The notes beneath the pieces were generated by a model. It was not told the origin of the DNA. It saw nothing but the letters and a program-made list of their open reading frames with translations, and ran no database searches. Both the position numbers and the translations under genes were made by a program. Shown here piece by piece: positions 37,786-64,000 of a stretch of 64,000 nucleotides of DNA (positions are counted from its first letter, which is position 1; each line of letters begins with the position of its first letter). The DNA is from Marsupella aquatica (lineage: Eukaryota > Plantae > Marchantiophyta), in NCBI GenBank assembly GCA_973895155.1, contig OZ316894.1:11463892-11527891 (forward strand). The letters run 5' to 3'.

Positions 37786-37816
<31 letters not shown>

Positions 37817-38268: not shown

Positions 38269-38271
<3 letters not shown>

Positions 38272-38299: not shown

Positions 38300-38366
38300 C
38301 GAGTCGGTGAGTGAGATATCTCTCCGTCGTGCCCTGCGAGAGGGAGGAAACGAGCGAGTGAGCGAT

Positions 38367-39755
38367 ATGGCGAAGGTTTTCACTCTGGCGGAGGTGGAGA
38401 CGCACAACAACGCGAAGGATTGCTGGCTTGTGATCGATGGCAAGGTGAGTGAGACGGTGGGACTTGATTTCCTGCTCGGTGCGGTTCGTTGCTTCCGTTC
38501 TCGCGTGACGGTGGTCAGGTTTCTGGAAGAGTCGCTCGATTGTGTGAAATCGATGGGCTTCCCGGTGGAGCGATGTAACGCCGTGGTTGATTTGAGTGGA
38601 GTCGAGTCTAGATGTAATGGAGCGAATCGGGAGTTCGGAGGGGGTGAGTGTTGGATTTGTCGGAAATCCGTCTTTACGAGATTGGATCGCGAAAAAAAGC
38701 ACGGCGTTTTTGCCCTGCTCGGAATAGCTGGATAATGTAAGTGTCCGCCCTATTTGGAGGGGGCAAGTTCTTGTTCGTGTGAAGAACTCAATACGGAAAA
38801 GTCTACTTTTCTCCAATAGGGGGCGTGCGATGGGGGCCTGCCGGCCTAGTCTGGTCAGTGTGGAGCCTCACGGAGAGGTGTGAGCTGCTGTGAGCTGTGC
38901 GCAGTCTCCTCCGTCCAGTGCACCCTTGTTGTCCGCTATCAATCTTATCTGCCGTGATATGAGCTTAGTCATTACACGATAAGTACTGGATAGAGTAGAG
39001 GAGGACGGTGCCTACCACAAAACTCGTATGATGCTGGGACACTAGCATGCGGGGGTCATTCTTGCAGACGGTTGTAGGCACGATAAGTCTGTCGATTTCT
39101 TCTTTCTTTTCTCGTCTCTAAGAGCTGGGATTTGTTTGTTGTTCGTCGTGCTCTCTGTCTGTCCGTATTTCACAGGTTTACGATGTGACCAAGTTTCTCG
39201 AGGAGCATCCCGGTGGCGACGAAGTTCTCCTGTCAGCCACTGGTAGGGCTTTTCTCAGCCTCTCTCTTCTTTGTGGAGAAATTACCACTCTAGTTTCGCA
39301 TTGCATAGAAGATCTTGCTTAGCTTTGCTTTTTTTTAGCGAGCTGCAGTCTCTGTAAATGCCCGTCACATGCCTGCTCCGTTCGTGATGTCGTATTCTCA
39401 CTTGAGGGTGGAGGGCAACTGGACTTTTACCTCCTCGAAGAAGTGACATTGATTGTGAGCCTGATTTTCTTCGTGTGCGGCAGGCAAGGATGCGACTGAT
39501 GATTTCGAAGATGTCGGTCACAGTAACAGTGCTCGAGAGATGATGGCGGAGTACCTTGTCGGTGAGATCGATGCCTCAACTATTCCCTCGAAAGCCACCA
39601 CCGTCAACCGAGCCAGCGAGCCACAATATAATCATGACAAATCTGGCGAGTTCATTATTAAGATCTTACAGTTTTTGGTACCTTTGGCCATTCTCGCTTT
39701 AGCAGTGGCTGCCCGCTTCCTGACCAAGAAAGAAGAACCAGTCCCCGAGTTGTAA
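38367..39755 (+). CDS. CB5: Cytochrome b5 (tail-anchored), 138 aa; exons 38367-38444, 39176-39242, 39484-39755
   Basis: MAKVFTLAEVETHNNAKDCWLVIDGK|VYDVTKFLEEHPGGDEVLLSATG|KDATDDFEDVGHSNSAREMM...; heme-binding HPGG and GHS motifs, C-terminal TM FIIKILQFLVPLAILALAVAARF; GT-AG introns, 417 nt in frame. Confidence 0.96.
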
Positions 39756-42581: not shown

Positions 42582-42882
42582 ATGCTCTGATTAGCGTCCT
42601 CGGGTATCAAGCGTGTTCAGGTAGAAAGTTCCCTGACACTTAGTACCAGCAGCACTAGATTCTAGATTTACTCGCCGCGTACTCAGGTTGAAAGTTCCCT
42701 GACTAACACGAGCACTGCTTAGAACATTCCTTGCTTGATTAGAGCAACTACTGACATTCATAAGATTAGATTCGACTCAATCGACTCATTGCTTTGCTCA
42801 GGTTTGAAAGGTTCCCTGACACATCACTATTCTGCATTTTTTACCATTCTTCTCATTAGTGAATCAATAGTTTCTTTTTGCC

Positions 42883-45800
42883 ATGGAACTACTGAGGATA
42901 TTCTCCGACACCGATAAGCTAGATGGCACCAGTAACCACATGGCCTGGACCATTGTGGTTAAGAATCTTCTGAAAAAGGAAGACGTGTTTCATGAACTCA
43001 ACTTCAACGCCAAGCCTGACGCCAACGGCAACTTCATAGATGGCAGAGCCCATCTGACCGCCAAGGAGAAACAGAAGAAGAAGGACAAAGCTGTCGCCAT
43101 CCTTGCATCTACAGTGAAGTCCAAATTTTTGTCCACAGTGGACAAGTTCTCCGACGATCCAGCCAAGTGTTGGGAGCATTTTCATCAACGCTTTGGTGGA
43201 GATCTACTACAATGCCAGATGTTCCTGATGCAGAAGCTTCAGACTACACACATGGTCGAGGGGAGCTCTGTGGAACTCTACATCAACTGGATCAACGAGT
43301 TGGCCGGACAGCTTTCCAGCATCAACGCCGAAGTAGACGAAACGCGTCTCATGCATATCGTACTACAAGGCCTTCCGCTCAGCTGGAACGCATTTGTTTC
43401 TATTTTCAGTGCTGATCTCTCTCGTACTCCTAAACCAAATTTTTCTAACCTTCTTGAACGTTTGCAATCTGATGAATACTGGAGGAAGGCCAAACAGGCT
43501 CAAGCTGAGTCTCACGAAGAAGCTATGGCTGTTACACGTTCATTCACTCGTAGCCGGGGACGACTTTTTCATCACCCCGATTCTTATCCACCTCGCAACA
43601 ACTTCGACAACACTCCGCCTCAATCTCAATCTCGGCCCAATCCTGCTCTCTCAGTTGGACGTGGGCGGCGAATCGGCACCTGCAACTACTGTGGAAAGAC
43701 CGGTCACTGGGAACCAGAATGTGATCTAAAGAAACTAGATTCTCAAATCGCTGATCTTCAACTCAAAGCTGCTGGGATACGCAGGTACCAACCTCAAGCC
43801 AACAGTGTTGAGACCCCTCCTAACTACTACGATGGACCTAAGGACACCATAGAAGTCTACAACGACAATGAGCACGGTGAGTACTTTGAAGCAAACTACT
43901 CTGAGCTTGACACAACTAGCCATAGTCCTAGTGAGTGGATACTTGACTCCAGCGCAAGCACTCATGTTACATGAGACAGTTCTGTCTTCCGCACTATCAA
44001 CCCCGGCTCTCACTCCAAATCAGTGACTACTGCTAGCGGTACTCAGCTGCCTGTAGCTGGACATGGTACCATTTCTATTGATCGCAATAAAGAGATCAAC
44101 AAAGTTTTGTACGTGCCTGGTCTTCAACGGAACTTCTCTCCATTGGGTCCCTCACCGACGCAGGCCATCTCATTCTTTTCAATTCAAAATCCTGCTTTGT
44201 TTTTGACAAGGACAACCCGTCTAACATCTTCCTCAGAGGAGCTCGCGATCCTCGCAACCGCCTCTACAAACTGCGTCAACCACTGCCGCTCGTTCCTTCA
44301 CACTCATGTCATCCCGACTTACTTCAGCAGTCCCCTATTTTGCTCACAGAAGTCTCTCACACCGACCTTGTCGACCTCTGGCATCGTCGCCTCAATCACG
44401 TGAACTACCAGATGGTGCATCACATGTCCACGGGGTCCTTAGTCACTGGGATACCACCCCTTCCTCGGGTAAAACGGGTTTGCGACACCTGTGTTCTAGG
44501 CAAACACCATCGGGACAAAGCTCCCAAATATTCTCGCTCTCAATCTTCTCGACCTCTGGAACTCATTCACTCCGACCTTTGCGGACCAGTTCATGGGCCC
44601 GGTCCCACCAAGTATATTCTCACTCTTATCGATGATTTTTCACGCTTTACTTGGGTTAACTTCCTCGCTTACAAAAGTGATACGTTCGCAAAATTCAAGG
44701 ACTTCAAGATTCTTGTTGAAAACCAATTCAACCACAAATTAAGTTGGTTGTCTTCGCTCAGATCGCGGTGGGGAATACATGTCCGCAGAATTTCTATCTT
44801 TTTGCAGGCTCCATGGCATTCGACGTCAACTAACCGTAACTAACCGTAGCTGACTTTGCACACCAAAATGGCATTGCAGAACGCAAAAACCGCACCCTAC
44901 TTGAAGCTGCCCGGACCATACTAATTGATTCTGGTTTTCCACTGTCTCTCTGGACTGAAAGTATCCGTGCAGCTAATTACGTCCAAAATTGATCCGGCAC
45001 ACGCGCCCTTCATCAGACTACTCCATTTCAGGCTCTACATGGCTCCAAGCCCGACCTCAGCCACCTCCATGTTCTTGGTTCAACTGCATACGTTCTTATA
45101 CCGGCCTCTCATCAGACCAAGCTCGGCATCAAAGCCATCCGCACCACCCTTCTCGGCTATGACGATCAATCTAAGGCCTATCACTGTTTTGATGCTACAC
45201 GCCAACGCATTCTCATCTCCAAAGATGTTACATTCGACGAGAATACCATGGGCATTCACGTCACCAATCCTACTGCCGCTCAACTACTATTCCAATCTCT
45301 CCTCACTGATGATATTCCTACAGCTTCGCTCGCTCCGGCAATTCTTGCTCCAGAGGGGGAACCAGTGCCCGATCAAGCACCTGATCAGGAGCCTCCAGTT
45401 CTAGAAGAGGAGTCTGTCTGTGAACCTCTGGAACCAGTATGTGAACCAATTGTGCCTGAGCCACTTGTTATTAATCTTGTCCCACCAACACCTCAACCAG
45501 CGCTATGACACTCCCTTCAGACCCGACAACCACCACCTTGGCACAACGACTACGAAATGAGCAGCAATCTTGTCAAGGCCACTGGATCTGAATGTGGAAA
45601 TCTATCTGTCGAAGAGGCTCTCAAACACCCAGGATGGAAGAAGGCCATGGAAGATGAAATCAAATCTCTCCTCGACATGGGCACGTGGGAGCTAGTCTAC
45701 CTCCCTGCTGGACGACGCGCCCTCACAGCAAAATAGGTCTTTCGTGTCAAGCCCGACTCAACCAGATTTTGACTGAAAGCTAGGCTCGTTGCACGTGGTT

Positions 45801-47005
45801 TTGAACAAAAGTTTGGCATCGACTACAATGAAACCTTCGCCCCTGTAGTCAAATGGTCCACTCTGCGTGCTGTCATCGCCCTTGCCATAGCCAACGGATG
45901 GGAGCTACACCATATGGACGTCATCACTGCTTTCCTCAATGGCACCCTCACAGAAGACTCTACATGCAACAACCTCAAGGTTTTGAGACTCCTGGAAAGG
46001 AAACAATGGTCTGCCGCCTACGACGATCACTCTACGGTCTCAAACAATCTCCTCGGGCCTGGTACAGTGAAATCGACTCTCACCTTCGAGAAACTGGATG
46101 GACCCGTAGCACTGCAGATCCGAATCTCTACTTCTATCACTCAAATGGGGCGCTTCTTATTCTCATGCTCTATGTTGACGATCTCCTCATCACCGGCAGC
46201 GATTCTGGCAAAATTGCTGACATCAAATCCCATCTCCAACACAAGTACCAGATGAAGGACCTCGGCTTGGCCCAGAAATATCTTGGCATTGAGTTCCTCC
46301 AAACACCTACTGGCCTCATTTTACACCAAGCTACCTACTGCCAGGAGCTCATCAACGAATTTTCCATCACCACATCAACGTCAATTCCACTCCCTGAAGG
46401 CCACATCCTCACAACTGATACTAACACCCCGCCATTTGACACAAGTGCTTATTGCCATGTTGTTGGCAAACTTATTTTTTTAACTCATACTCGACCTGAC
46501 ATCTCCTATGCCGTCGGCATCGTCAACCGTTACATGAGCGCTCCACAACAACGACACTGGGATTCTGTTCAAAACATTCTCAAGTACCTACACGACACTT
46601 CTGACTATGGGATTACCTTTGTCAATACATCTACGACCTCCCTTTAAGGATTCACTGATGCTGATTTTCTTGGATGCCCGGAAACTCGTCGCTCCCGTGG
46701 TGCTTACCTGATTCAACTGGCGAACGGTCCCATCTCATGGTCCAGCAAGCTTCAAAGTACCGTCTCTGACAGCACCACTGAGGCAGAATACAAGGCACTT
46801 TCCGAAGGGGCTAAGGAAGCTGTCCATATTCGCAGACTACTTGCCGAACTTGATCCTCACTCCAAACTTACCGTTCCTCTCACTTCTTCAAACTCATCCA
46901 TTCATCACAATCTCTCCCATGCACATATTCCTACCTCTGCTGACATCCACTTACACTGTGACAACCAGAGATCTATCAAGCTCGCCAACAATCCCGTTTT
47001 TCATG
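42883..47005 (+). pseudogene. Copia gag-pol polyprotein with several stops and frameshifts
   Basis: UBN2-type gag (VLQGLPLSWNAF), zinc knuckle CNYCGKTGHWEPEC, protease WILDSSASTHVT, LWHRRLNH, integrase ELIHSDLCGP/IDDFSRFTWV/QNGIAERKNRTL, RT MDVITAFLNG/LYGLKQSPRAW/YVDDLLI, RNase H GFTDADF..STTEAEY..CDNQRSIKLANNPVFH. Stops at 43972, 44990, 45506, 45734, 45770, 46645. Confidence 0.93.
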
Positions 47006-47500
47006 CACTACAACATATTTTGCCCTTTTGCGAAGCTCATTTGAGTTCGGACACACGTTTGCGATTCCAGATGCTTCAAACCGTTGATGACTCAATACGC
47101 ATCGCAATTTGCGATACTTGTGGTATCGCAACTTTGGTCTTCCATGCGATTTGCATCGCAAACATTTTGCAAACTTTATTGTATCACAATAGTTTGCGAA
47201 ACTACAGAGATTACAAAACACATTACAAAGGCTCCGCGACCGCTCCGAAAGTCCGAAACCACGGTAACATTAATGATGCGAAATAATTAGTATTGGAGGA
47301 TGTTTGCGAAAAGGTTAGCTTCAAACAATTTGCGATGGGTTTGTATGGCAAATGTGCGAAACGATGTGGATGGTAAAGGTGGGATGGTCTGGATATCGCA
47401 AAATAGTGAAGCGTATAGTATGGAATAATTGAGAAACGGTTTAAATGGCAGAATTGCGATTTGGTTGGGATTTGTTTAGTTTCGCAAACAGTTCGCAAAC
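47006..47500. repeat. CACTA terminal inverted repeat and subterminal repeats (TTTGCGA/TCGCAAA in both orientations)
   Basis: CACTACAACATATTTTGCCCTTTTGCGA..., then at least 10 TTGCGA/TCGCAA motifs up to ttcgcaaacagttcgcaaac at 47481-47500. Confidence 0.88.
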
Positions 47501-48772
47501 GTTTATGTTAGACTTGTGTGTGCATCTAGGTTAGAGTTTGAATGGGGGAGGAGGAGGGAGGGAGGTGAAAGGTGAAAGAGGGAGGAAGGGAGTTGGAAGG
47601 TGGATGAGGGACGGAGGAAGAAGGGAGTCCAAAGAGGGTTTACTAAAAATAGGAGAGACTTTAGCGAAGAGGGAGGGAGGAGAAAAAGCTATGGAGTTTT
47701 TGGAAGAGGAAGGAGAGTTTGGGTTCAAAGAGCCCGGAGGAGGGATAAGGGAGGGAGTACCCATGTCACTTATATGCATGACCTCTTTTGAAAGTAGGAG
47801 TCCAAAATGAAAATACCTACCACACTAATGGTGTATGAAATATTAATTAAGAAACAACATGAACAATCCATGATATAGATTTTTGGTTTAAATATCCATA
47901 AGTGTCTCTCACACTTGCACTAGAAGAATCCGAGGTGAACTGAGACCGCAATATATGACTCATTTTGGCTCATGTGACTTCATTGTGACTCAACGTGACT
48001 TGACCCACGCTGTGACCCTTGGAGTTGCAAAAGTTGAGACCAAAAAATGGAAGTCACTATTGATACTGGGCTTTGCAACTTGCTTGATACCCATTTGTGA
48101 CTGATCTGTGACTTTATTGTGGAGTCTAGCCTTGTTTTGACGTGACTGCAATATGACTTCAGCGAGTCACATCATAAGTCACATACATGACTTACCCGCA
48201 TTCAACAACGACTAGCGTGTGACTGTTTAGTGTCACAGGAGAGACCAATGGAGACCTTGGCCCGCGTCACACAACAGAACCATTTGGGACTCTATATACT
48301 CATGTTTATAACTAATAAGGTTCACATGCAAGTTATAACCATGACTAATGAACACAGAGGGACAGTTCATAAGGAGAGATTGCACTCGACATTACAATAC
48401 ATAGAAACCTGATGTTCTAACTTTAGAAATATAACACATTGAATACAAGAAATGAACATAGCATGAATGACATCCACATGAAACAAAGCATCATATAAGC
48501 AGATCCTACATAAAACATTCATAAGAATTAAACACAATCACAATCTTGCTAAAAAATGAAGATCATTTGAATTCCAATGGAATAGTTTACAATGTGATCA
48601 ATGTAATTTAGACAAAACAGGAACTCATAATTGATGACTGTAGGATGAGATAACTGAAAGCACATGCATGATACTATGAATCTCCAAGAGGACATGATTC
48701 TTGTACTGCTTCTTGACATCTAAAATCTACATAACATGACTCACACTACAAACAAATAATGGCATGACATTG

Positions 48773-51700
48773 TTATGGATCCTCTATGAACTTGCTTGGC
48801 CATAATACCAAAGAACCTGCAGCATCTCCAAGTGTCTTTTGAGGAGGATCATCATTTGTGTTTGGAATGGGAAGGACAGCTTTAGGTTTCACTAGTAATG
48901 TGACTAACACTACTGAATAACCTGGGGGAATCCTCTTGCCATGGAACGTTGTGGAACCAACCTGCACTCTGGCAAATCCTACTCGTGTTCCACTCTCATC
49001 AACAGCTAACAAGCCACTTTGTCCCTCAGCATTAGGTGCTTTCCCCACTTCCACCTTAGATCTTTCTGCCAACACTGTTCTTGGAGGTTTGTATGAAACC
49101 TTTGACGTGGCTCTGCTCCCACCAGCAGACTTGCTTCGTGTGCGCATGCTTCCTCTCTTCACAGTAGTGAAGCTAGGCTCAGTAGGTTCCTCTGTTAGGA
49201 CTGTCACAGTAGCAAGTTCATCACCTGGGAGTGTCATACCAACTAACTCTTTGGTTGGATTTATCTCAACAAGAGGCACACCTGTCATTGAGAATGATAC
49301 ATTCTGCAAATCATTTATCTCTGCAATGGAGTCAAGATCTACATAGCATGAATCTGGCTCAATGGTATCATTGTCATGCTTACTGATATCCTCATTTGCC
49401 CCAACATTGATATCATCCACTCCCTTGCCAATGTCATCCTCATCCAAACATGGTTGACTGCCCTCTGTCAAACAAGTTGCTTGTACAGACTGCAACTTTG
49501 TTGCCTCTAAATTACAACGAGTATTTGCCAGGTTCTCATACTTCTTCTCTGTAGCACCTGTCTTATTCTCTATGGACACAACAACCACAATATATGTTAC
49601 TAAAAATAACACATTCAACAAACAATGTCAATTGAAACTATACATTTAATAATCATATCCCACACAGTTGTAAAGGCCTTACCTTCAAGCCTACATGTCG
49701 TTGGCATGCCAGAAGAGTGCATCAACTTTGCCACCTCAAGTGGTGATGGTGGAACTCCTACAGAATTGGAATCAATTTTATCTCTCACCGATACAACAGC
49801 TTCCATTAATGTCTTGAAGTTCACATGGAACAAGTCAGTCAATGAATTCAAACGTTCATTGATCTCTGGAAGACATGTTTCGACAGCCTTCAAACGACCA
49901 CTTATCTCTGTAAGTGAAGATCCACCTCCCTACATGACACAGGGGTATAGGTTCAATCACTCCATATGAAATGTTGGGCAATATATGCACAATCAATGTT
50001 ATATACAGTGTACACCTGAAATTCAACGCAGGTCATTCAATTACCAATCAGAACTCATATAACTTACATGCTTGGAGGATTCAGATGCACCCTCTTGAGC
50101 CCGGGTGTTCACAATTTCAGCCCTCAACTCTTCTTTTGAAGGGCTTTGCCCCAATTGGGTTTTCTGCACATGCATGGCAAACACAAGTTATCGATCAATA
50201 TTCAAGGAACGTACACTAAAAAACAAAGTTTACATGTATGGGTTTACACTAAAAAATAGTACATAGTGTAGCATAAATTACATAGCTAGGCCATTCATTC
50301 TTACCAAACGTTTAGCTGTCGGTGCAGTGCCGGTCCTTCCTGTCAGATTAGGGTTCTGAACACTCAACCTGGCCTCGGTCATCTGTGAACTCTTCTTTTT
50401 TGAAGCATCTGTTACAAAATAAGCTACTAACCTTGCCCACACTTTATCATCACAACTGGCTGGTGGAGGCATATCTGGCTTCTCCCCACCTTCCTTCCAA
50501 GCCTTATGCATTCTCCACCTCTCTTGCTTGATAATTTTACCTGCTGTACTCTCTAGGCAACCTATGTCCACGCCATCATCACTGCCCACATAATTCCATT
50601 TGGCAGCAACATTTTCACATACAGTCTTCCAATCTTTTGGATGCTGTTTTTTAAAATTAATAACACTCACATCTAACCAACGCAATACTTCAGCTTTCAA
50701 ATCAGCATGCCATCGGTTCTTGCGAGGACACTCAGCATCCACCCATTGTCTCTCATTCAACTTTACGTTCCCTTTCTTTGTCACCTCCCCTCGTGCACTG
50801 CTCTCGGTAGTACTGGGCGTTGTATTGGTCACCCCTTCATTCACCCTACCTGGGGTTCTGAAGCCACCTGGGAAAATACAATGCCATTCATGCTTGAGAA
50901 CTACATATAGCAGAATGGATGACGGCAACATTCAATGCTTCACTTCAAGAAAAATTCTTCAAACATACATACCTGTAGCTCTGCCTGTAGATGCCTGTGC
51001 AGGGACTGCACTCTGAAATTGTTGCGACCCTGGACCACCTGTCCAGCCTAGTATAGGGGCCGGATGATGTCACTTTCTAGGTATGTGTGTGCAAACATAT
51101 GTACTGAAAACTAAGTACAAATTGTAGGAAAACAACTGAACATTCACCGACATACCTGTCCCCCTTCCGTGCTGCATCTGCATAGGGGCATTAGTGAATA
51201 CTTGAGTCGATGGTTCGACTGTCCAACCTGCACACATACATTTTCTATCATTATACATGTGTAGAGTCCCCCCCACGTGAATGGACTCCACATATAATGA
51301 GTTCTTCCATTGCTGACAAGATCAGACATTACCTGCTCCTCTTCCAGCGTTTGTAGGTACTGAATTTTGATATCCCTGCCAATTACCTTCACCACCTTCC
51401 CAACCTTGTTCATTCCACGACCCACCACCATCCTCCCAACCTGGTTCAACCCATGTCTGTCCTTGTGGACATTGGAACTGATCATTACTAGCATTTGCCC
51501 AATCAGGTTGGGCAGAATCTGCATGCAATGGCAGGTGGACAGAATTTCATGTTGTTTGAATCCAATACATCCCAAACAATGTCAAAAATTGATATGCAGT
51601 CTGAAATTCAGGAGTGCCATGCCTTCACAAAGAACTGGCATATAGATATATACTCACATCCCCATGGTTGAGGTGGACGTCCATACCCACGAGATTGTGG

Positions 51701-52477
51701 GTTTGGACCTGCTCTGCCTCTACCACGGGCATAACCTAGAGCTTGCCCCCTGCCATAGTATTGGGCACCAGCCTGGGATCTACCACTACTACCACCTTGC
51801 CAACCTTGATCAGAGGTCAGCCCCCCTGCTGGTATGGTGCATGCACAGGCTTCGAAGGCAAAACAGAACTGGCAGGACGCTGCATCACATCACCAACTAC
51901 AATGTCAGGAACTAAGCAAGGTACATATGTGTAGTACTGAACATATGAAACCTCTAAACAAGAGTTTTTAACTCAAAACCTTGTTGGGAAAACTACTTAC
52001 ATGTTTCTTTTGGGGCTGCTCTGCAATGTATTCATCTTCATAACCCCCATCCTCATCCATTTCCTCTGGAAAATACTCATCATCTGCACGTCTTGTCTAG
52101 TGTTTGCACCCACCTGTGCAGCATCAATGTCATCTCCACATTCTGCCATTGTAGGTACGACCTTCTTGCTCAACCTATCACTCCGACGCACAGGCCCAGA
52201 GATAGTGTTGGTCACCCTTCTTGCGTACTCCTTTTGTTTCTTTGAAAATGCTGTGGCTCTGCGACATTCCAATATGAGAATACAATCACAATTTCAGTGC
52301 CACATTGAACTATTCATGTCACACAAACTCAGCGGAGGGGTGTAGTTGAGAATCGTTCCCTTACAATTCAGCCACATCCTTTTCCAGATCCAGTTCTGCG
52401 ATTTTGGCTTTCACGTATGCTCGTTGTTCCATAGCTTTCCTTTCATACTCACACATCTCTGTGTCACTCTGTTCCAT
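48773..52477 (-). pseudogene. CACTA TnpA/Tnp1-like multi-exon accessory gene (probably frameshifted)
   Basis: About 10 GT-AG-bounded exons from ATG 52477 (MEQSDTEMCEYERK..; RRSDRL). Includes Gly/Gln-rich exons, a Ptta/Transposase_24-like exon (PPPASCDDKVWARLVAYF..KKSSQMTEAR, 50867-50304) and a Tnp1-like C-terminus (TFHGKRIPPGYSVVLV..LPIPN..TLGDAAGSLVLWP). Apparent frameshift near 52090. Exon model approximate. Confidence 0.65.
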
Positions 52478-52633
52478 CCTACTGGACCACAAAAACATGT
52501 CATCTATGGTCACCCCATATAACACAATGCAACCACAATCACCAGGCATCCATCCATACATCTGTGTTGCTTCAGAATTACTTTATTACACATCCTTCCC
52601 CTCACTAATGTCCATGCAAACAATTCACATTAC

Positions 52634-55600
52634 TCATGGCACAGGCACACTGTTGGCATCTGCATCTCTGAATTCGCCTCCTTCAGCAAATGCATCTACC
52701 CTTGTCACAGGAATGAAGTCCCCGCTATCATGAACTACAGGCACTTGGTCTGAACGCCGACGATCAAAGGCACTATGAGAGTGTAAATGAAACTCAAGGT
52801 TTGATCCTTCCATCCGACGTTGCCTGGCCTGTTTATGACACACTACACGCCAACCTGGGGAGTCTTCCACATCCAGGAAGAAAGCTTGCTCCACCTGACT
52901 AGGAAACACAAATGGCTCAGACCATTCGGGCAATTTCCCTCTGAAATTGGCCAGCAAGAAACCGTCGTTGTCTCTCTTCATGGTAGCCCTGTTACCAAGC
53001 CAATCCTGCCGCACCCATGAACCTTTCATAAGAATCACAGGACTGGACACCGCCCCATAGTCCAGAGCCCATATGTCAACTAATTCTCCCACATATCCCA
53101 TCTCCATCCAGGCCCTGTCGTGATTGTGGCTCTGTTGCTCAAATACAGTGATGAGCCCGCAGTCATTCGTCACCCTGTAGGCACTGTCACCATCCTTCAC
53201 TCGGAAGTGATTCCCATATGCTCTCATCCGTTTGTAAGTCTTCACTTTCAGGCTAGGTGCATTAGACAGTAGGTAAACATCTGCATCCATGTCTGGGTGG
53301 GTCTCGTGATGCTCTCTAATTGCCACTCTGATCCACTCCATGAAACCTGGAAACGTTGTTCCTGCAGTGGGATGGGCCGCCTTCAATGACTCATACTCCC
53401 TGAACGAACAACCACACAGCATTAGCTTGGGTAAACATGAACAGGCTGAAGGAGAAAACCACACAAACACAACATTTAAGCTCATGAACTGGATTATAGC
53501 ACATGTATGCACTCACTGTATCCAGGGTTCCATCACCACAGTGTTGTGCAATACAAAGTCATGTGCCAAGTCTCTCATAGATATGGTCAGGTTCTTTGTG
53601 GTTGCAGCCCCTTCCAGTACTTCACCTATCACCCCTTCCTCCTCATCAGAATTCCACACCCTGGTCTTCACATGCTCATATTGTGCTATGTATTCGGTCA
53701 GAAATCCCAGAGTCTCATCCTTGATGTAACCTTTAGCCATGCTTGCTTCAGGTTTGTAATATGTTCTCACGTGACCTTTGAGTAGCTTCATGTACCGTTC
53801 CAAAGGGTACAACCAACGAGCACTCACAGGCCCAAATTGGTGTAGCTCTTCCACAACATGGACAAGTAGGTGGGTCATGACATCAAAAAATGCGGGAGGA
53901 AAATAAATCTCCAGGTCACACAGCACCTGAGCGACATCTTCTGTCAGTTGCGGGAAGTGTGTTTCATCCCAAACCTTCACACAAATACGACGAAACACAT
54001 CACTGAGTCGCATGATCACAGTACGAACAGGCTTCTGCAACAGGCCCCTCAGGCATAAAGGCAACACCTGTTGCATCAACATATGGTAGTCATGGCTTTT
54101 CATACTACCAAGCTTTCTAGTCATGATATGCTTCTTGAAAGCACTGCCATAGTTTGAAGGAACCTTCAAAGAACTCAACCTCTGCACAAATAGTTCCCAC
54201 TCTATGTCTGTCAGAACATAGGGCGCTTGGTACTTCAAGAGCACATCAGCTCTGTGGGCATGTGGCCTCAACCAAAGATGGGGTTTCATTCCCCTCTGTT
54301 CAAGATCCAATCTCACTGAACCAGTGTCTTTCTCTCCACACAAGAATCTGAGTAGACTCTCACAAATATTCTTTTCAATGTGCATAACATCAATGTTATG
54401 TTTGCTTGGCTCAAACTCCTGCATCGTTGCAATGCAAAAGCGTCAGGAAATGCCTCAAGTTTAGTCTCTCTCTTCGAAATGAATGCACATGCTCTGAACC
54501 AAAACATGTATCCCAATTAGCATCAACTCCAAGAGGCTTACCCTCCAGTACTTGAGCTCCAAGTACAATATGCTCAGTCTTTTTACACCATATCGCTTTA
54601 TTGGATCACTCACTCCATCTTCCCTGCCCCCTCGTTTGATATAGTCATCCCTCAATGCTCCCCACTGCCTGATCTCCTCTTTGGTCACTCGTGCCGGGGG
54701 TCCACGTTGCTCAATCTCATTGCCAAAGTGTGCAATCAGTGCCTGTCTTTCTCTGTAAGGGTGATCTGCCTTCAGAAAACGACGATGGCCCATGTATATC
54801 ACTTTCTGCAGGGCTCTGGAGTACTCACTGGTGACATTGCGCCCACAGATAGTACAAGCACAATATCCTTTTGTTGTTTGGCCTGATATCATCCCATGGG
54901 CTGGGTAGTCAGCTATAGTCAGAATGACAATGGCTCTAAGGATGAATGGGTTTAACCTCCCAAGCCTCTATAGGACATCATATGTGAGAACTCCTTCCTC
55001 CCAAAGCTTTCTCAATTCCTCCACTAGGGGAGCCAGAAACACATCTATGTTGGCAGATACAGCACTGTCTGGCCCTGGTATCAGTAGGACCATCAGAACA
55101 AAAAATCGCTTTGTAGTCATCCAAGGAGGAAGGTTATAATTCAAAATAGTTACAGGCCAGCACAAAAATTTGTTGTTCTTGTCTCCAAATGGGTTTACCC
55201 CATCCAATGACAGCCCAAGTCTGACATTCCTCGGCTCAACAGCAAATTCGGGATACATCTCATCTATGAGTTTCCATTGCCTTGAATCTGCAGCATGTCG
55301 TTGTAGCCCATCATCACTTTTCTTGTCAGTTGCCCAAGTCATCATCTCCGAGATGGCATGGCTTCTGAACATCCGCTGAAGTCTGGGAATGAGTGGAAAA
55401 TGACGAAGTACCTTGGCAGGAACCATAGACTTTCCTGAGTTCCGATACCTGTGCTTCCCACACTTAGGGCATGTCAACGATTCTTTATACTCCTTTCTGA
55501 AAAGAACATGCCCATCAGGACAGGCATGGATCGAATCATAGTTCAATCCAAGATTAGATATGCATCTTTTTGCCTTGTACATGTTCTTGGGCAAAATATT

Positions 55601-56365
55601 ACCATCTGGTAGCACAGTTGTTCGCAAGAATGCCAACAACTCAGAAACCAAAACGTTGGGGACATTGTGGTTGTCGCAAATGTTCAGGAACATGATGACA
55701 AATCCCAGTTTAGAACATTTGCTACCGGGGTACAAAGACTTCCTGCCTTCCTGTATTTGCAGGGGAGAGCCAAACATCCCATCATGCCCAGGGGTTTCCT
55801 GCCCTATCTCAAACTCATCAAGAGGCTCTTCGACAGGGGGCACACTTGCATCTGCAGCCGTATCCTCTTCGTTGTCCAGCCCATCATGAAATGCATCAAA
55901 GTCTTGGAAGATGTCTCTCACCATCTCGTCCACATGAATTCCTTCGTCACGTGGTGCTGCCTGAGCACCATCCCATTGGAGAGCTGACAACCCATAGAGA
56001 CCAGCTACAACATTTTCAAATGCACCAGGCAGAACCTCACTTGCCCGTCTTGCAGCATTGGCAGCATCAAATTCTAACCTCCACTCCTCGTCGGAAGAAT
56101 CTTCCTCTGCAGGATCATTCCAAACTCGATGTCGTGGATCTCTTCCATGAACCGCGATATGCCGCCAAACCTCATTCAGACCCCTGGTACGGGATCCTTG
56201 GTAGATTGCACAAGGACATCTCATCCTACTGGCTCCTGAAAGTCTGGTTCGTAACCTTTCACGCTGCCAAAGCTTATTATCATGGCGTGATATCCTTGTG
56301 GGATGATGCAAAGGCAGTGCCTGTGCCCTGGGCTGGGTCTGGGGAGGGTGGTGACCAGGGTGCAT
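52634..56365 (-). pseudogene. CACTA Tnp2/TnpD transposase; exons 56365-54542, 54418-53517, 53399-52634; one in-frame TAG at 54970-54968
   Basis: Transposase-associated CPC..V.RH motif, IHACPDGHVLF, LRHFPLIPRLQRMF, EPRNVRLGLSLDGVNPF, WPVTILNYNLPPW, IDVFLAPLVEEL, DYPAHG..SG, IDVMHIEKN, DUF4218 FPPAFFDVMTHLLVH..WLYPLERYM, DUF4216 EPFVFPSQVEQAFF. The frame continues across the TAG. Confidence 0.92.
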
Positions 56366-56798
56366 TGTAACAGGCTGGGAGCTCTGCAGTCATGGACAGC
56401 AGTGAACAAGGATGCCTAATGGTGGTATTTGTGTTCCATATATCCCTGACTGTATCTGCCAAAAGAGTTAACATAACGTGTACTAAATTCTCACAAACCC
56501 TAAACCACCCCAAAAGAAAAAAACAGGTTCGCAAGTAGTGTACCTATTGTCAAGTGAATGACACAAAATTCCTAAATGTTGGAGGGTGTCACCACCTCCT
56601 CCGCTGTCCTCAAATGTACCGCCTCTACATGTACGTTTACAGTGACACCCCCAGGCAGCAGGAAACAACAATCTGCCAACAGTAAAATAAGCCCAATTGC
56701 CACCAACCATAACAAGGTACATTAGTTCAAAGATCACATTTATTTCAATGATCTGATTTATACAAAAAAACTTGTGTCCAAACTGATGCTACTACTCC

Positions 56799-57678
56799 TC
56801 ACTCTGATTCAGAATCGCTAATGACCCATTCCTCACTTGTTGTCTCATAGTCCTCTCTGTAAGGATCCTGACCCTTCCGTGGCCAGGCCTCAAAAAGATC
56901 ATAGTCCATTGGGTTTTGACGCTTCCCAGCTACTACTGATTCCACAAGCCAAGCATATGAAACCACAAACACATTATGGGACATGACATAAAAGCGAATG
57001 TCTCCCTTCCCAAACTTGCGGCAGGCTTTGGGATATGACTTAGTAATGACATGAGTGGTGTCCTCTGTTATATTCTCCTCCACTGTCCACCTAGGTCAAG
57101 CACTGTGGACTTGTACACTTTGCACTTAACCTCTCCAATTCCCGCCTCCACAAATACCATGCTCAGCCCTTTCAGAATGGGGGTTGGTTGCTTCGTCTCC
57201 TCAGCCAACATACTCTTCAGCCTTGTAGAGCTCTGTCCTTTGTTGAGTACAGGTCCATATTGGAGATCAGCAAGCCGTGCCTTTGTGCTTCCCAGACTTC
57301 TTGTTCAGCCCAAGCTGATGCAGTAGCTTCTTCATCCTCCCACAACTCATATTGCTCAGTATCCTGTACAATCTTATGTGCTATGGAATCTGTGATCCAA
57401 AAGGCCTCAACTACTTTTAGGCCTTGCTTAGTAATTGTAGAATTCATGTAGGACCATGACCACTTCTTTATCACTGATAGCCATGTCCCTGTAACAACAT
57501 GTGTAGTCTCTGGAGTGATGTCCTGAACTACAGTGCCATGGAGCTCAGAGAATCGTTTCTGTACAATTGGCCAATGCACTTTGGTCAACCCATGCTGGCC
57601 ATGGACCAAAATCGCTCTGACCCCTGTAAACACTGCTGGGTGGTCACACTTTCTACGTTTACCAGGCTCCATGTACAC
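56799..57678 (-). pseudogene. Tandem BRCT-domain gene (two repeats), frameshifted, carried next to Tnp2
   Basis: Repeat 1: VFTGVRAILV..FSELHGTVVQDITPETTHVVT..VVEAFWITDSI..EQYEL. Repeat 2: ILKGLSMVFVEAGIG..VLDLGG/TVEENITEDTTHVIT..VVSYAWLVESV..MDYDL, with a 1-nt shift near 57087. G(G), THV and WxxxS hallmarks of BRCT. Confidence 0.8.
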
Positions 57679-58264
57679 ACACCCTACGTGATGACAGTGA
57701 ATTTTGGAAGAATGGGTTCACCTGACAATACAAGGACAACAAAATTCCTGCTTTTTGAGTTGATCTGGCCCACTGGTGCTCAGGTCCGATTTTGATAGGT
57801 ACAAGGGATATGTGAACAATACGTACTAGGCACCTACACGGATGCAGGACATTGTTTGAATATATACTACAAAATCCATATCCGTGGTGAAATGAAGTGC
57901 AACCAACTTGTCATGGCACATACATATTTTGTTGTAAAGGAGGATACATTCAATGACAAACTTATAGGGCAATTTGATTAATTGCATGCCTGATAATTTA
58001 TACGCTTACAACTTAGAAGTCCTGTTTTAATTTAGCAGTCTGATGAAAGTGTTTATGAAAATGACCACTCAGCCTAAATACTTCCAAGAAGGCTTGTAAG
58101 GATAAGTTTGTATAGGCATGTACCCAGCCACTGACGCCAGAGCACAAGATAAGTGCTGCCTATATAAACTCGCCTACCCAACTCCTTTTCAAAATTGGAA
58201 TCTCTGCAATCTCAAAAAATAGTACATCCACATCAGGTGCACTGTGCATGTACAATGTTCAGCT

Positions 58265-58945
58265 TCACAGCCAAGATATGTGATCTCTCACAGGAGTGCG
58301 CGAGGTAGGATCAATGGCATGGCGATGACAATAAAATATCCATCGATCAACACCATGTGCAGAGTGATCATAGATTTCTCTGTCACAAGCATAACCCTCT
58401 GCTTGATGATCTTTCAGGCAATGATAGTGCCACATAGTGGGACACCTAGCACAGTGGACTATGTCAGTCCAGTAGTCATCATCATGCTCACCACATGCCT
58501 TGCACCTATGAAGTGGGCAAGCTGTGGCATGAGTAGGCAAACACTCAAAACAGAAAAATCTCACACAAAAACGGTCTGGACATTTCCTAACATTTGCTGT
58601 AGCATCAACAGAGCCCTTATAGGACCCCAACTTCCCACACTGTGCACACTTAGCCTGCTTCTCCAAACAATCAGTGCACATCCAGTCTCCCTGGTGTGTT
58701 GACGGGAGGCCCACCCCTGGACAGTTGTTTTCTACAGCAAGGTCAGACTCCGGGTTGAGGTGGAAATGCCTCATGCAAGGGCCCTCACAAATGACCAGGC
58801 CCCCACCATCGTCACAAATGGCACAACAATGAGCTGCCTTCTGGAAAATCTGACTTGCAGAGAAGTTAGTAGCATCTGCCCCAAGTACACCTGTGTTTCT
58901 CACCTCAGTCACACGCTTTTTGGCTTGAATTTTAGGCCGTGCCAT
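58265..58945 (-). CDS. Stand-alone EDM2/NSD-type PHD-finger cluster protein, 226 aa, intronless
   Basis: CAICDDGGGLVICEGPCMRHFH...W.CTDC....AKCAQCGKLGS...C....C..FF...C...CPLHRCKAC...CARCPTMWHYHCL...IFYCHRHAID....TPVRDHI follows the recalled EDM2 PHD module in order. Splice acceptor gcgcag 2 nt before the ATG. Confidence 0.82.
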   Translation of the reverse strand: MARPKIQAKKRVTEVRNTGVLGADATNFSASQIFQKAAHCCAICDDGGGLVICEGPCMRHFHLNPESDLAVENNCPGVGLPSTHQGDWMCTDCLEKQAKCAQCGKLGSYKGSVDATANVRKCPDRFCVRFFCFECLPTHATACPLHRCKACGEHDDDYWTDIVHCARCPTMWHYHCLKDHQAEGYACDREIYDHSAHGVDRWIFYCHRHAIDPTSRTPVRDHISWL

Positions 58946-58956
58946 GCCTGCGCATG

Positions 58957-59100
58957 AGATAGACTCTACAATTTAGCAGACTGCACAGAAAGTAAAATAT
59001 ATTTAGCATTTAAGTTACAAAGGCATTTAGATAGACTCTACAATTTAGCAGACTGCACAGAAAGTAAAATATATTTAGCATTTAAGGTACAAAGGCATTT
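58957..59100. repeat. 72-bp tandem duplication, 1 mismatch
   Basis: agatagactctacaatttagcagactgcacagaaagtaaaatatatttagcatttaag[t/g]tacaaaggcattt x2. Confidence 0.92.
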
Positions 59101-59715
59101 GCTACTGCAATGAATTGGAATGGCCACACAAGGATGCAGAGCACACATACTTTTGGTATGTTGAGCCCACACACAAAACTGATCCCCTAATACAATTTCT
59201 CCACCAACACCTCAATTTTAATTGTGGCTATGATTCACCAAAGGAGATCTGCAACAACATTTCATGCATTTGAATCACATACAATAGTCGTGACATGTAA
59301 AACAGGCATTCTTTGAAGAGGATTGGTATGAAGCAGTGTCATAAGGGTTGAAATTTATACATCCTAAATAGGTTATGATAGTGGCTGAGACAAATAAGTG
59401 AGGCATAAATCATTTTGCATATTATCACATGGCCCATTAATTCATTCAACGTTGCAATGTTCACCAGGTTAAAGCAGTCATGAAAGCAGTCTTTCAATAG
59501 AGACTTTTATGCGAGTTTGCTAGCCTCTTAAATTAGGATATTTTGCTTAGTGCAGGCATAATAGGATATAAGTTATGTACTGTTGACCCTAAACCCTGGA
59601 CCCAAAATTGCTCATACATCAAAATTTTAAGTAAATATCCTCTGTGTTGAAGTCAGAGTGTTAAGCTATAGGTCAATGGTATCTGGTCTGTGCATGCGGT
59701 GTGACAAGTGGTCCT

Positions 59716-60165
59716 CTAGAGCATGTGATCCAAACATGTGTAGACACCAAAGTCACCGGTGGTGGGGTCTAGGAGGGCAGGACAAGTGACATCACCAGGC
59801 ACACTGCAGGATGGCGAGTGGTTCCAGATGATACATTGTGCTCTATGCAAAAATCGGCATCCAAGAGAACGGTCATCCAATTCTGGGCCAGAAGCCCTAC
59901 AGGCAGGACAGTCATATTGGCAACTGTGTACACACCCTTGGCACCTAATTTGTGGCGGGTCATGTACAAGAGACACAAATACCAAGGATGTCGGGAAGGG
60001 TACTGAAGCAGGTAGAGGCCGGCTGTAGTTATTCCTGGAAACAATAGGGTACTCAAAGTACCATGCAGACTGGGCTGGAAGGATCCCAAGTCTGACATAC
60101 TCAAGGCGCAACATCTCTGCCTTGCGTGCAAGTCGCACATGTTCAGCGTTGCGGGTCCTCACCAT
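59716..60165 (-). CDS. Orphan Cys/His-rich protein, 149 aa (putative Zn-binding)
   Basis: ATG-initiated ORF co-oriented with the other element genes; basic N-terminus MVRTR; CxxC-x3-C-x3-CxxC...GC-x3-H-x3-C...TCxxH. No family recognised. Confidence 0.45.
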   Translation of the reverse strand: MVRTRNAEHVRLARKAEMLRLEYVRLGILPAQSAWYFEYPIVSRNNYSRPLPASVPFPTSLVFVSLVHDPPQIRCQGCVHSCQYDCPACRASGPELDDRSLGCRFLHRAQCIIWNHSPSCSVPGDVTCPALLDPTTGDFGVYTCLDHML

Positions 60166-61173
60166 AAGTGTTGCTTTCGTTGTGATGTCCTCTGTTCACG
60201 TCCTTTGATGAGCAAGGTGAGCAGGAGGTCGACTTGCCTCGCCAACAGCAACCACCTAAACTAATTAGTTCCCACTCATTGTCTTGGTTCCAACTACAGG
60301 TCATAGTATACACATAGCATGAAACGTGCATAGTACATATTTGATTCTGAGTTTATGAGTTTCCTAAGACAAAGAGCTTGGTGATAAACCCATATTCTCG
60401 ACGGACATGTATATCAATCATATTAAACTCCTGTTTTTTCATCCAGAAAGACCGAAAGTCTCACCTTGCAGGTTGCAGCAAAGAGAAAATTCACTGGTTG
60501 TCGTGTTGTGCAAGTGAACCTCCACTGATGCCCCGGTGTAGCCCCTCAGATGCAGGTGACACTTACCAACTCCCAAGTTGCCTGGTCTAACAGAAAATGC
60601 TTATATCTTCAAAACTTTATAGAGCAAGTACATGATCACATACTTCTGGATCTATTCATATTTGGAACTCTTGCCAACTACAACTCCCATTATGCACAAG
60701 CTCACATCAACAGAGAAAGATACAGAATGCATACTTACTATGGCTCTAAGCACCTTCACTACCTTGTTGAACCCAGTCCTGAAGTCTTTTCAGCGTGTTT
60801 GTTGTGCTGTCTCCTTTGGCACCCGACACCTTAGTCCTTGATGTAACAGAATGCGATTTTACAAGTTAGATGCTTTGGAACCTTCTATGGTCTTAGCTGA
60901 ATTGATGTCATCGTAAGTGGTGAAAGACAAGGAAGACGAAAGCTGGTTGAAGAGCTGTGGACAACACACTAGCATGAAGTGCTTCAACCAATCCACTGCC
61001 AAACGGAACTCTTACACAGTCACATTCTTTCAGTAAACAGAAACTCAGTCAAACTTCATAATCAAAGTACAGACTCTGAAGGACCAAAGGAGGATGTTGT
61101 GAGTTTCTCTGTTGTTTAATGTGTTACCCTTCTAGTTTCGAAGTTAGCAAATGCTGAATAATGTGTCTACCAG

Positions 61174-61511
61174 ATCTTCGAAAAGAAGCCCACCACAATT
61201 AAGAACTTCGGTATCTGGGTGAGGTATCAGAGTTGTACAGGTTATCCCAACATGTACAAGAAATATCGTGATACCACATTAAACAACCACACAGTAGATG
61301 TATGATGAGATGGCTTCTTGTCATAGAGTTCGGTTCCCTTGCATCCAGATCATCAAGACTACGACAGTCCCTGTCTCTCTGTGCAAGCGAGAAAGTACCA
61401 AGCAGTTCCATGATTCAAAGATCAAGTTCCTTGACGTACCGCAAGATTCAACCTCCATCGCGAAAGCTAAAGACGACTTACAAGGCCACCAAGCCCAACA
61501 CATTTGTTTGA
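61174..61511 (+). pseudogene. RPL18a: 60S ribosomal protein L18a (eL20) C-terminal exon fragment, two frameshifts
   Basis: cag|[37 protein letters not shown] / [44 protein letters not shown] / [25 protein letters not shown]. The N-terminal half is absent. Confidence 0.9.
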
Positions 61512-64000
61512 GTAGTGCGGGTGCAGGTTCCCAATTTTGAAACAATTTGGCTCATTTTATGTCCCGAGGGACTCCAGGAGTTTATGTATTGAGTTTCTAG
61601 GTGAAGATGCTTAATATAAGGAAATTCAATTATCACTTCGTTCCCAACTTCTATTAATTGAATATACACAAGCTGGAAGCAAGAAGACAAGCCACAATCT
61701 AGCATCTTAGCCAAACACAATCGTTCCGACAAAGCAAAACTCAGCTGGACAGAAGTCACTCGGATCCACAAAAAATTGAAGATTCACCTCCAAGCCGGAG
61801 GCCGATCACTTTAGTACAGCAGCTTCTGGATGGAACAAACTCTGCTCAGCCCCACAGAAACACAAATGTTAAGGCTCCAAGTCAGAGCTCACAAACAGAA
61901 ACTCAGATAAATAACATTCAAAATCTGTCCAGGTTTGTGCAAAGTGTACATATTCATTCTTCTGGAATGAACACGCAATCCATAAGAACGAAAGTAGGAA
62001 GGCAAGCGCACGGGCCACCGAGAAAAGTAAAGGATGCATGTGTTAGTGGGGAGGGATCTTAGCAAAAACAGGGGAAAGCAAGGGAACTTGCTGCTAAAAT
62101 CAGCTGAACGATTGCACGGTTCCTATAATATTTAGTGGACCTTAAGGCCGTCTGTTCACCCCCCCACCCCACCGCCAGAGCATGGGGCACAAGGCATGTT
62201 CTGATACAGGGAGGAGCGAAACAGTCATGTCAAGCAAGAAGTGTGGAGAGACCAATCAGTAAGCAAAAATAGGGGAGAACATACATACATCAGCAGCAGC
62301 AGGAAACAAGAAAGATGATTTTGGGTGGCATCTTAGGGTCGGGGACACCACTGCAACACCGGGACTTAGGATATGACTAAATGTAAGCTACACAGTCCTC
62401 CGTTCTCTTCAACAATTACCTTAAACAGTGAAGTAATCTAAATGGATGTTGATCAAAATCAATTGCAACTACGCGGCCCTTGGTTCTGCTGTGGCTACAG
62501 TAGCCAAGAGAACAACTCAGAGCCTTGATTGAAGACTGTGCTCTCAAACTAAGCTAAAGACAAAGAGATATAGAGAGAGACAAAAAAAAGTTGACAGGAG
62601 TGCAAAGCGAGAACCCACTCCCGTTCTTTCAACACCCTAAACCCCGCTGCCTGACTTAAGTTGCATGGCGACAGAAGCAGTCATTGAAAACTTACCTTGT
62701 GATGACAAAAACGCTCTGGGATGGGCTGCTACTCCCAGGACTATCCCACACTCTTAGCGCCCCGTTGCTATTGAGCCACACTTCAGTTCAGCCGCGCACG
62801 CTCAATCTTTGTCATTCAGCTAAGTTCAGCTCCGCAGGGCCTGGACTCACTCTCATCCAATTTCAGTTGATCAGTATTGCAGCTCTCTGCTCCCAAGAAC
62901 AGGTCCTTGCGTTTGTTGAGCGCCTCTATAGACTCACTTACCTCCAAAAACACTGAAAGTTTTTATCTGCATTACAATGAGCTCTAAAGACCAAAAACAT
63001 TCCCGCCTAAACTGAAATAGAGTCCGCAACTACAAGCTTTGCAGCTCAACTCTCTGAGCTCTCCCAGCTCAAAGGTATCAGCATGTTGTACCCACACTTG
63101 ATCGAACGCTCTTCCAATGCTCGCTAGGTTGATCTTCCAATGCTCACGGTAAGCTATGGACACCAAGCTCAGAAGACCGTGGGGAGACAACTAAACTTGC
63201 AGCGACGTAGGACCGCAAAGATAGGGATTACAGCTTTACCTGGGGTGATGCAGCACCAAGCCGTGCTGCGTAGCAATCCGCAGCAAGAATAGTCCAAATG
63301 CAAGCCAAGTGACAAGCTCCTGGTTCTCGATCCCAAGTTGCAACTGAATATCGAATTCACTCTCCTAGCTTCAAGGAATGAGTGTCTATTGAATGTTGAA
63401 TTAAATTCTCGCAAACTCTTCACAGTGCTTCCCGTAGTGCCTATTGTCGATGCAACACACAATCACTCTTGATGCCTACTACTCACATTCCCTTTTCTCA
63501 ATGCAACACACACTCGCTCTTCTTGCCTCCTACTACTCACATTGCCCAACGATCAACGAAAGCAGAAGGACAGGACAGGGAGAACCCTTTTGCAGCTCAG
63601 GACGGCAAGGCTAGGAGTGTATACACATCGGGCCGCAATAAGGTCCAACCTCAACTTCAAAAAGTGCAACGCCAAAACTGGAAGTCGGGTCCAATAACAG
63701 TCGTTAGTAGGATGTGAAAAAACCCCTAAAGTTGCAGCATTGCCATACTCTACTTCCTCACCCGGTAGCGCTAGGCATTCGACCTCTCTCTTCCAAAGAC
63801 CTCGATGACCTCCCACCAGCTCAATGACGATGGCACGCAAAGCTTCCGTTTGGCTTGCAAACCCTTGAGGCAAACCAACTCCCTTGGAGACCCTTCCCAA
63901 AACCCTATGCGGGAGAGAAATGCCGAACGTGAAGACCACTCACTTGTCTTCCCATTGAAGTGGAGACATTAGTTCACAAAAGAGACACAAAAGTCTATGA

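Follow-up and report, generated by a model that had tools for sequence, protein, structure and literature searches.

A 64,000-nucleotide stretch of the genome of the liverwort Marsupella aquatica (assembly GCA_973895155.1, contig OZ316894.1, positions 11,463,892 to 11,527,891; hereafter the window) contains a large CACTA transposon with three small genes upstream of its transposase. On the minus strand the order is a Cys/His-rich open reading frame (ORF), a cluster of PHD fingers, a pair of BRCT repeats, Tnp2 and a TnpA-like gene, followed by a CACTA terminus at 47918. We consider it quite probable that the three ORFs are selected genes of the element. The PHD protein, whose N-terminus resembles the tail of histone H3, may be an anti-silencing factor among these accessory genes, a role that we hold to be about as likely as not. 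The fuller proposal, that this is an old land-plant CACTA lineage with an enzyme-free anti-silencing kit made up of a PHD cluster derived from EDM2 and bearing an H3-mimic tail, together with a scaffold of BRCT repeats and a new zinc-binding protein, is tentative, and we regard it as possible but doubtful.

The Cys/His-rich ORF (59716..60165) encodes 149 amino acids of no known family. The PHD gene (58265..58945, with its ATG at 58945) encodes a stand-alone EDM2-type PHD cluster of 226 amino acids, and the BRCT gene (56799..57672) has two repeats in about 289 codons, with two frameshifts in the window copy. All three are on the minus strand, as is the intron-containing transposase gene (52634..56224), which has a stop codon at 54968-54970 in the window copy. 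Pfam matches to Transposase_21 (E 2.4e-42 and 3.1e-22), DUF4218 (4.6e-28) and DUF4216 (1.2e-4) identify this gene as a Tnp2/TnpD transposase of the CACTA/EnSpm superfamily, and Transpos_assoc is also matched (0.039). The TnpA-like multi-exon gene (48773..51900, minus strand) has a Transposase_24 match in 50281-50880 (E 1.3e-4, under the curated cut-off); its last exon (48773-49594), which we take to resemble the TnpA C-terminal domain, gave no match in a Pfam scan. The terminus itself (47918..48500, plus strand; the 3' end relative to the genes) starts with CACTAG and is rich in subterminal GTCAC/GTGAC motifs, with 4 in 47501-48000 and 10 in 48001-48500 versus 0-3 in the remaining bins of 46501-64000. 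This motif cluster and a step in contig depth at 47918 establish a CACTA terminus with subterminal repeats at this one end.

Membership of a repeated family was assessed from assembled contigs of four runs (organism labels A, A, B and C; 679-12,930 contigs per run) placed on 46000-64000; X1 or X4 among them may come from the same source as the window. In each of the four runs, summed contig depth climbs by a factor of about 10-16 at 47918 before dropping again near 62300, and an X1 flank contig piece stops at 47917, one base before the CACTA end. Long X1 contigs have depths of 1775, 1782 and 1554 over Tnp2, 1799 over the BRCT gene and 1641 over the BRCT-PHD spacer, versus 378 (47006-47917) and 132-139 (the side resembling a long terminal repeat (LTR)) in the flanks; these depths were compared without a single-copy gene as reference and are not convertible to copy number. 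Because contig depths are alike inside the element and unlike those of its flanks, the cassette behaves as part of the repeated unit of Tnp2. The ratio of observed to expected CpG is 0.24-0.40 in the three ORFs and 0.38 in Tnp2 versus 1.07 in a host exon, and the depletion in the ORFs fits a long history of methylation. An earlier note on this DNA had placed the genes within a CACTA transposon, and contig depth and CpG loss support a repeated CACTA family over single-copy host DNA. The arrangement that it described, with three co-oriented genes upstream of Tnp2, is confirmed, and the Pfam scan bears out its statement that none of them has a catalytic domain. Its description of the genes as single-exon holds for the coding parts but not beyond them, where the PHD and BRCT starts each have an AG acceptor shortly before them.

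The window copy is a decayed member of this family. The Tnp2 stop codon is absent from the covering contigs in all four runs. The BRCT frameshifts near 57284 and 57086, which split the window copy over three frames, are both missing from most contigs when these are weighted by depth (49-100% in the individual runs), and family contigs without both shifts have a continuous BRCT frame of about 289 codons. In a second contig placement, the Tnp2 start, the first BRCT repeat, most of the PHD gene and the whole Cys/His ORF have matching contigs in X10, with identities of 86-93%, and X7 contigs (organism D) cover the Tnp2 core and portions of all three cargo genes. X8 and X9 were not counted as further species; their contigs are 151-227 letters long, have depths of 2-20, are close to the window and are possibly carry-over. 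Sparse or missing coverage of the spacers in X7-X9 was given no weight. Summed depth over the PHD and Cys/His region (58020-60423) exceeds that of Tnp2 in X1 and X2; derivatives that keep the cargo without the transposase are one possible cause, on which summed depth is not decisive.

The PHD cluster has the EDM2-type three-finger Cys/His pattern and the closing YC..H...TP.RDH motif, and it gave three weak NSD-type PHD matches in Pfam, all below the curated cut-offs (E 5.5e-5, 6.2e-5 and 0.004). A profile search returned 569 matches at E <= 0.001, the best 150 of which were listed. Among the nine top matches looked up, the long proteins are EDM2 or EDM2-like, and several liverwort proteins rank among the long relatives with the highest scores. 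Five full-length stand-alone homologs were found at 37-81% identity; complete homologs share the start Met and the terminal motif, and the stand-alone homologs in the databases are often truncated, as expected of decaying transposon copies. In a tree of 51 rows (nine stand-alone rows, nine named hosts and one in three of the remaining rows that satisfied a motif filter, which 116 of 173 proteins passed), the nine stand-alone rows make up one side of a 100/100 branch. The PHD protein is not an EDM2 orthologue, having 226 amino acids and neither the RFD nor the long C-terminal region. Its predicted fold is of low confidence, with a mean predicted local distance difference test (pLDDT) score of 48. 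Viral and prokaryotic collections contained no relative of the locus that we could find, and a metagenome scan gave 13 loci with EDM2-like or unrelated PHD genes, where none of the ORFs of at least 150 amino acids was transposase-like on reading. Liverworts also have a second EDM2-like protein with its PHD cluster at the C-terminal end (P0014, P0017, P0019, P0025 and P0030). The liverwort EDM2-like paralogue was considered as a donor and rejected, being nearest in the first tree, with a long-branch warning, and not nearest when outgroups were included.

The stand-alone clade has kept its zinc ligands. Ten stand-alone homologs retain 20-22 of 22 ligand columns, which were chosen from the alignment, and one truncated row retains 20 of 20, versus means of 10.7 ligands kept at 53% identity and 8.1 at 40% in 500 runs of a neutral simulation (maximum 16). 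When all Cys and His residues from residue 41 onwards are counted instead, 26-29 of 35-36 are kept in distant complete rows at 38-53% identity. The clade also shares a replacement of a second-finger His ligand by Cys, with an adjoining deletion. All 42 host rows have one to three acidic residues within the six positions that precede the first Cys, and none of the eight stand-alone rows has any there. Acidic residues of this kind hold unmethylated H3K4 in AIRE-type fingers.

The N-terminus of the PHD protein, which the earlier note did not mention, has A1-R2-x-K4, A7 and K9 in the spacing of residues 1-9 of histone H3. In the 18 clade members that have the N-terminal region, R2 is found in 17, K4 in 16, A7 in 10 and K9 in 10; positions 1-2 are imposed by the anchoring pattern, K4, A7 and K9 are free, and the rows, being related by descent, are not independent. 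No residue at positions 10-20 occurs in more than five of the 18 rows. Three proteins with later starts (P0010, P0072 and P0103) and a near-copy of P0009 (P0157) were left out of this count. Met directly precedes the motif in 12 rows, two of which have it internal to the called protein, and K4 completes the definition of an H3 mimic in 10 of these 12. The window protein itself has the full sequence definition of an H3 tail mimic (H3TM), namely an initiator Met followed by a small residue, R, any residue and K. Among about 21,000 human proteins, 48 have this N-terminal pattern (PMC8166343), and the same source gives H3 R2, K4 and the 7-10 motif. Short grass-type EDM2-like proteins also start with M-A-R-x-K (P0033 from Eleusine coracana, P0040, P0057, L004 541-1662 and L005 137-1276). 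Because P0033 groups with flowering-plant EDM2, the layout of tail plus PHD cluster may have arisen twice by convergence.

The Cys/His-rich protein has two homologs at 54-56% identity with a common N-terminal motif and Cys/His pattern. It has no Pfam or PDB match and its profile does not match the PHD profile (0.6%). An X10 contig aligns across the ORF without gaps, with 38 differences in 526 letters. The protein is likely zinc-binding, and these comparisons support its conservation as a stand-alone protein over deep divergence. The protein and both homologs start with M-V-R-T-R; in P0007 this motif is internal to the called protein. It is another basic N-terminus, and it departs from the H3-mimic definition solely in having Arg instead of Lys at position 4.

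The first BRCT repeat scores above the Pfam cut-off (22.7 versus 21.3 bits) and the second below it (E 0.011). The first BRCA1 repeat is the best PDB match of both (E 1.6e-4 and 0.011), and for repeat 2 an unrelated cytochrome bc1 subunit scores as well as BRCA1. The two repeats align to each other with a score of 92, against a maximum of 48 in 500 shuffles. Their likeness to each other and to BRCA1 repeat 1 suggests that one arose from the other by internal duplication. The BRCA1 Ser, Lys and Arg that we take to be the residues of the phosphopeptide pocket are replaced in repeat 1 by His, Ser and Trp, and the phosphoserine pocket is not kept there; repeat 2 retains the pocket Lys and has Ala in place of Ser. 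The predicted fold of repeat 1 is of low confidence (pLDDT 39). Plant tandem BRCT proteins without a full pocket, such as BCP1, did not bind phosphorylated H2A.X (PMC11014961). With the pocket of repeat 1 replaced and pocket-poor plant BRCT proteins failing to bind phosphorylated H2A.X, a reader of break signals is unlikely, and a scaffold is the better guess for the BRCT pair.

These results bear on the functions that the earlier note had assigned. Its break-repair adaptor is not supported by a BRCT pair that does not keep the BRCA1 phosphoserine pocket in repeat 1 and for which no homolog was found among longer proteins. The suggestion that the cassette reads heterochromatin marks rests on EDM2 ancestry, and the acidic residues kept in 42 of 42 host rows are lost in 8 of 8 stand-alone rows. 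The Cys/His protein, which it had counted in a cassette of chromatin readers and repair adaptors, finds no support as a reader. What stands of the accessory kit that the note had suggested is a repeated CACTA family in which the PHD and Cys/His proteins are conserved over deep divergence, but not mark-reading or a repair adaptor.

Evidence on selection within the cassette is mixed. Besides the two frameshifts of the window copy, 13 indels are listed in 56250-60250, of which 12 fall outside coding sequence and the remaining one is a 3-mer that keeps the frame (p 0.002, with 50% of the interval coding); the underlying lists are limited to the best-supported rows. Among the substitutions listed for Tnp2, 11 of 25 are synonymous, versus 3 of 18 for the cassette (Fisher p 0.10). 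Of the ten non-synonymous changes in the PHD gene, six produce the amino acid found in P0001 or P0002 and another three trace to a single short X9 contig. Because of this restoration of close-homolog residues and the contribution of a single contig, the substitution list leans toward decay of single copies. The lack of stop codons in database proteins was not used as evidence, as this would be circular.

The anti-silencing proposal starts from what is known of the host protein. EDM2 binds to chromatin marked by H3K9me2 and promotes the formation of full-length transcripts (PMC7529245, PMC7472560), including transcripts across heterochromatin derived from transposable elements (TEs) (PMC7529245, PMC7472560, PMC9910501), and COPIA4 transcripts are nearly lost in edm2 mutants (PMC3632883). 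An ancestral element would have captured an EDM2-type PHD module and shed the remaining EDM2 domains. After removal of the initiator Met, the tail could serve as a decoy substrate or ligand for the host enzymes and readers of H3K4 and H3K9, with the PHD cluster keeping the protein on chromatin. The stand-alone finger has no acidic K4 site, so host proteins are a more likely target of the tail than the finger of the same protein. Decoy and tethering together may help a long multi-gene transcript through methylated chromatin, as host EDM2 does at TE-containing introns; with five or more co-oriented genes spread across more than 14 kb, such an element would on that account benefit from having its own version of EDM2. 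For the BRCT pair the prediction is a scaffold that does not depend on phosphorylation, and the Cys/His protein would be a small partner that binds zinc.

Several observations weigh against this proposal. In 6 of the 18 rows Thr precedes the tail motif and the called start lies farther upstream, which weakens strict mimicry, and with motifs that are internal in this way the tail may be a plain nuclear localisation or DNA-binding patch. To this come the imposed tail positions 1-2 and the alignment-based choice of ligand columns noted above. With the acidic patch lost, the mark read by EDM2 may no longer be read. When four NSD-like outgroups are included the stand-alone rows stay together (SH-aLRT, the Shimodaira-Hasegawa-like approximate likelihood ratio test, 97), and the donor is left unsettled. 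Only 3 of the 18 cassette substitutions listed are synonymous, versus a neutral expectation of 26-31%, and the synonymous count thus gives no support for selection. Among the contig pieces listed none bridges Tnp2 and the PHD gene, the PHD homologs at 37-53% identity have not been placed next to a transposase, and the far terminus of the element is missing from the window. No BRCT homolog was found in 435 candidates, all of them longer proteins, with lengths near that of the BRCT protein outside the search; without a homolog among longer proteins, long-term conservation is least supported for this one of the three genes. Finally, Mu1 rises in edm2 mutants, meaning that EDM2 represses Mu1 (PMC3632883).

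Selected accessory genes could instead serve target-site choice, with the PHD protein tethering the transposition complex to a class of chromatin and the BRCT protein linking it to Tnp2/TnpA or to donor-site repair, a reading near to the second half of what the earlier note suggested. The evidence for family membership and conservation also fits this; the PHD cluster has a match in the PHD cassette of NSD2/NSD3 (E 3e-12), both BRCT repeats match BRCA1, and PHD fingers are present in Rehavkus transposases (PMC6446971). This explanation is rather unlikely in our view, as the phosphoserine pocket is not kept in BRCT repeat 1 and the conserved H3-like tail would be left unexplained; the nesting of the window copy in other transposons is uninformative on insertion preference. 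The genes might also be neutral cargo in the manner of Pack-CACTA elements, captured host fragments that ride along and decay. The low synonymous count, the frameshifted BRCT gene of the window copy and the many truncated database homologs would all agree with this. The PHD clade, however, sits on a long branch from the host rows and yet shares its ligands, the His-to-Cys swap, its start and, in complete rows, its end; the indels listed avoid the ORFs, and the Cys/His ORF, which has no named host counterpart, nevertheless has homologs at 54-56% identity. Neutral cargo appears quite improbable.

A similarly small probability attaches to the ORFs being exons or alternative 3' ends of one En/Spm-style unit, spliced into larger TnpD or TnpA proteins. 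All genes are on one strand and AG acceptors precede the PHD and BRCT starts, in line with this, but every ORF has a terminal stop codon, the PHD homologs share a start Met and an end motif, and no transposase domain was found in the 39 PHD matches scanned (P0003-P0005 and 36 of the best 150), nor in the two Cys/His homologs scanned with them. We consider it very improbable that the members of the PHD family are host genes, ordinary or domesticated, one of which was recently picked up by the element. The short EDM2-like grass gene with a similar start (P0033, Eleusine coracana) is compatible with such an origin, and the genomic context of the distant homologs was not seen. Against it, the long EDM2-like proteins have named plant accessions but none of the 16 stand-alone clusters that were looked up has one, and the ORFs show TE-like loss of CpG. 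We retain selected accessory genes of the element as the preferred reading, with anti-silencing as the proposed role of the PHD protein.

Accessory cassettes are already known in the CACTA superfamily, and what appears new here, within the literature searched, is a reader-only, non-catalytic kit. Plavaka elements of red algae (EnSpm/CACTA) are likewise large and carry a conserved three-gene cassette, of which one gene has no assigned function and two are chromatin-related; PAG2 (N6-adenine methylase and SET) and PAG3 (ParB-like and 2-oxoglutarate (2OG) oxygenase) are, however, predicted enzymes (bioRxiv 10.1101/2025.02.11.637652). The window cargo is non-catalytic (PHD cluster, BRCT pair and Cys/His protein) and stands beside a land-plant Tnp2/TnpA pair; SET, N6-methylase and 2OG-oxygenase Pfam matches were absent from the window ORFs scanned, as were VANC and Ulp1 domains. 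En/Spm families of Chondrus are 16-20 kb long with 4-5 ORFs (PMC6431247). The proposed parallel in function is VANC/KIU of VANDAL elements, in which an additional gene of the element acts on silencing within that element's family, but VANDALs belong to the Mutator-like superfamily and VANC recognises DNA motifs with demonstrated activity (PMC6446971, PMC13317346), whereas the window cassette is known from its sequence alone. Pack-CACTA elements also carry host-derived sequence, but they are non-autonomous and contain fragments of host DNA (PMC6379663, PMC13317346). The window family has Tnp2, a TnpA-like gene and an old conserved cargo clade, and is not a Pack-CACTA: a transposase is present, its stop codon is absent in family contigs and the cargo is far from the host rows. 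The literature searched, with Repbase and most subscription journals outside its scope, contained no description of CACTA cargo of the PHD, BRCT and Cys/His type. The earlier note had thought its combination undescribed, which holds for the reader-only kit in the literature searched but not for chromatin cassettes in CACTA/EnSpm elements, which have been published (bioRxiv 10.1101/2025.02.11.637652).

At the level of single proteins, EDM2 (of the ASI1-AIPP1-EDM2 complex) and the liverwort EDM2-like paralogue (MARPO_0005s0286, R1sor_003797) have the PHD cluster, including YC..H...TP.RDH, in common with the window protein. They differ from it in length (600-1600 versus 226 amino acids) and in having the RFD and C-terminal domain, and in the window protein the acidic patch is gone, a second-finger His ligand is a Cys with an adjoining deletion, and an H3-like N-terminus is added. 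H3TMs share the sequence definition with the window protein, but they are human host proteins tested in vitro only, with no transposon-encoded case in the available portions of that source (PMC8166343), and the window tail is a sequence match only. BRCA1-type tandem BRCT proteins and plant BCP3/BCP4 likewise have two BRCT repeats per chain (PMC11014961); the window protein differs in that each of its repeats is like BRCA1 repeat 1, a linker of about 55 residues joins them and the first-repeat pocket residues are replaced.

The remaining features surround these genes. A 72-bp tandem duplication with an intron-acceptor-like tract (58957..59100, strand not assigned) lies just upstream of the PHD start. 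The upstream part of the element (60166..62348, minus strand) is presumed to hold the promoter and 5' untranslated region; depth stays near the element level to about 62300, and four ORFs tested there gave no Pfam match. It is followed by a sequence that is probably an LTR (62352..64000, minus strand) and that interrupts or replaces the 5' end of the element; neither a matching terminal repeat nor a fitting CACTA/TAGTG pair for the second terminus was found within the window. Between Tnp2 and the TnpA-like gene, 51997-52582 (minus strand) has two short ORFs without a Pfam match, and family contigs differ from the window by one base at 52088; an additional small gene or exon may sit there. On the other side, 42871-47917 belongs to a three-level nest, in which a Copia element (gag, integrase, reverse transcriptase and RNase H) is cut at 47006, within its RNase H region, by the end of a different CACTA element, itself cut at 47918 by the cargo-bearing one. 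This other end (47006..47917, plus strand) starts with CACTAC, has 16 TCGCA/TGCGA motifs in 47001-47500 and an X1 contig depth of 378. Left of the nest are host-like genes, including a TPR protein, a cytochrome b5 and presumably an IQ-motif protein, together with a fragment of a long interspersed nuclear element with zf-RVT (13991-16662, 23349-23837, 38217-38735, 20629-22305), and tandem arrays at 29425-29807 and 36418-37953 with units of 43 bp, 75 bp, 124 bp and about 112 bp.

If the fuller proposal is true, the PHD protein would be a transposon-made decoy that captures H3K4 and H3K9 writers and readers at the element, unrelated to VANC. A kit combining a reader with a histone mimic would counter silencing by another route, using a module taken from EDM2, through which the host carries transcription across heterochromatin. 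The stand-alone PHD cluster would also be a natural variant from which to learn what the PHD cluster of EDM2 reads.

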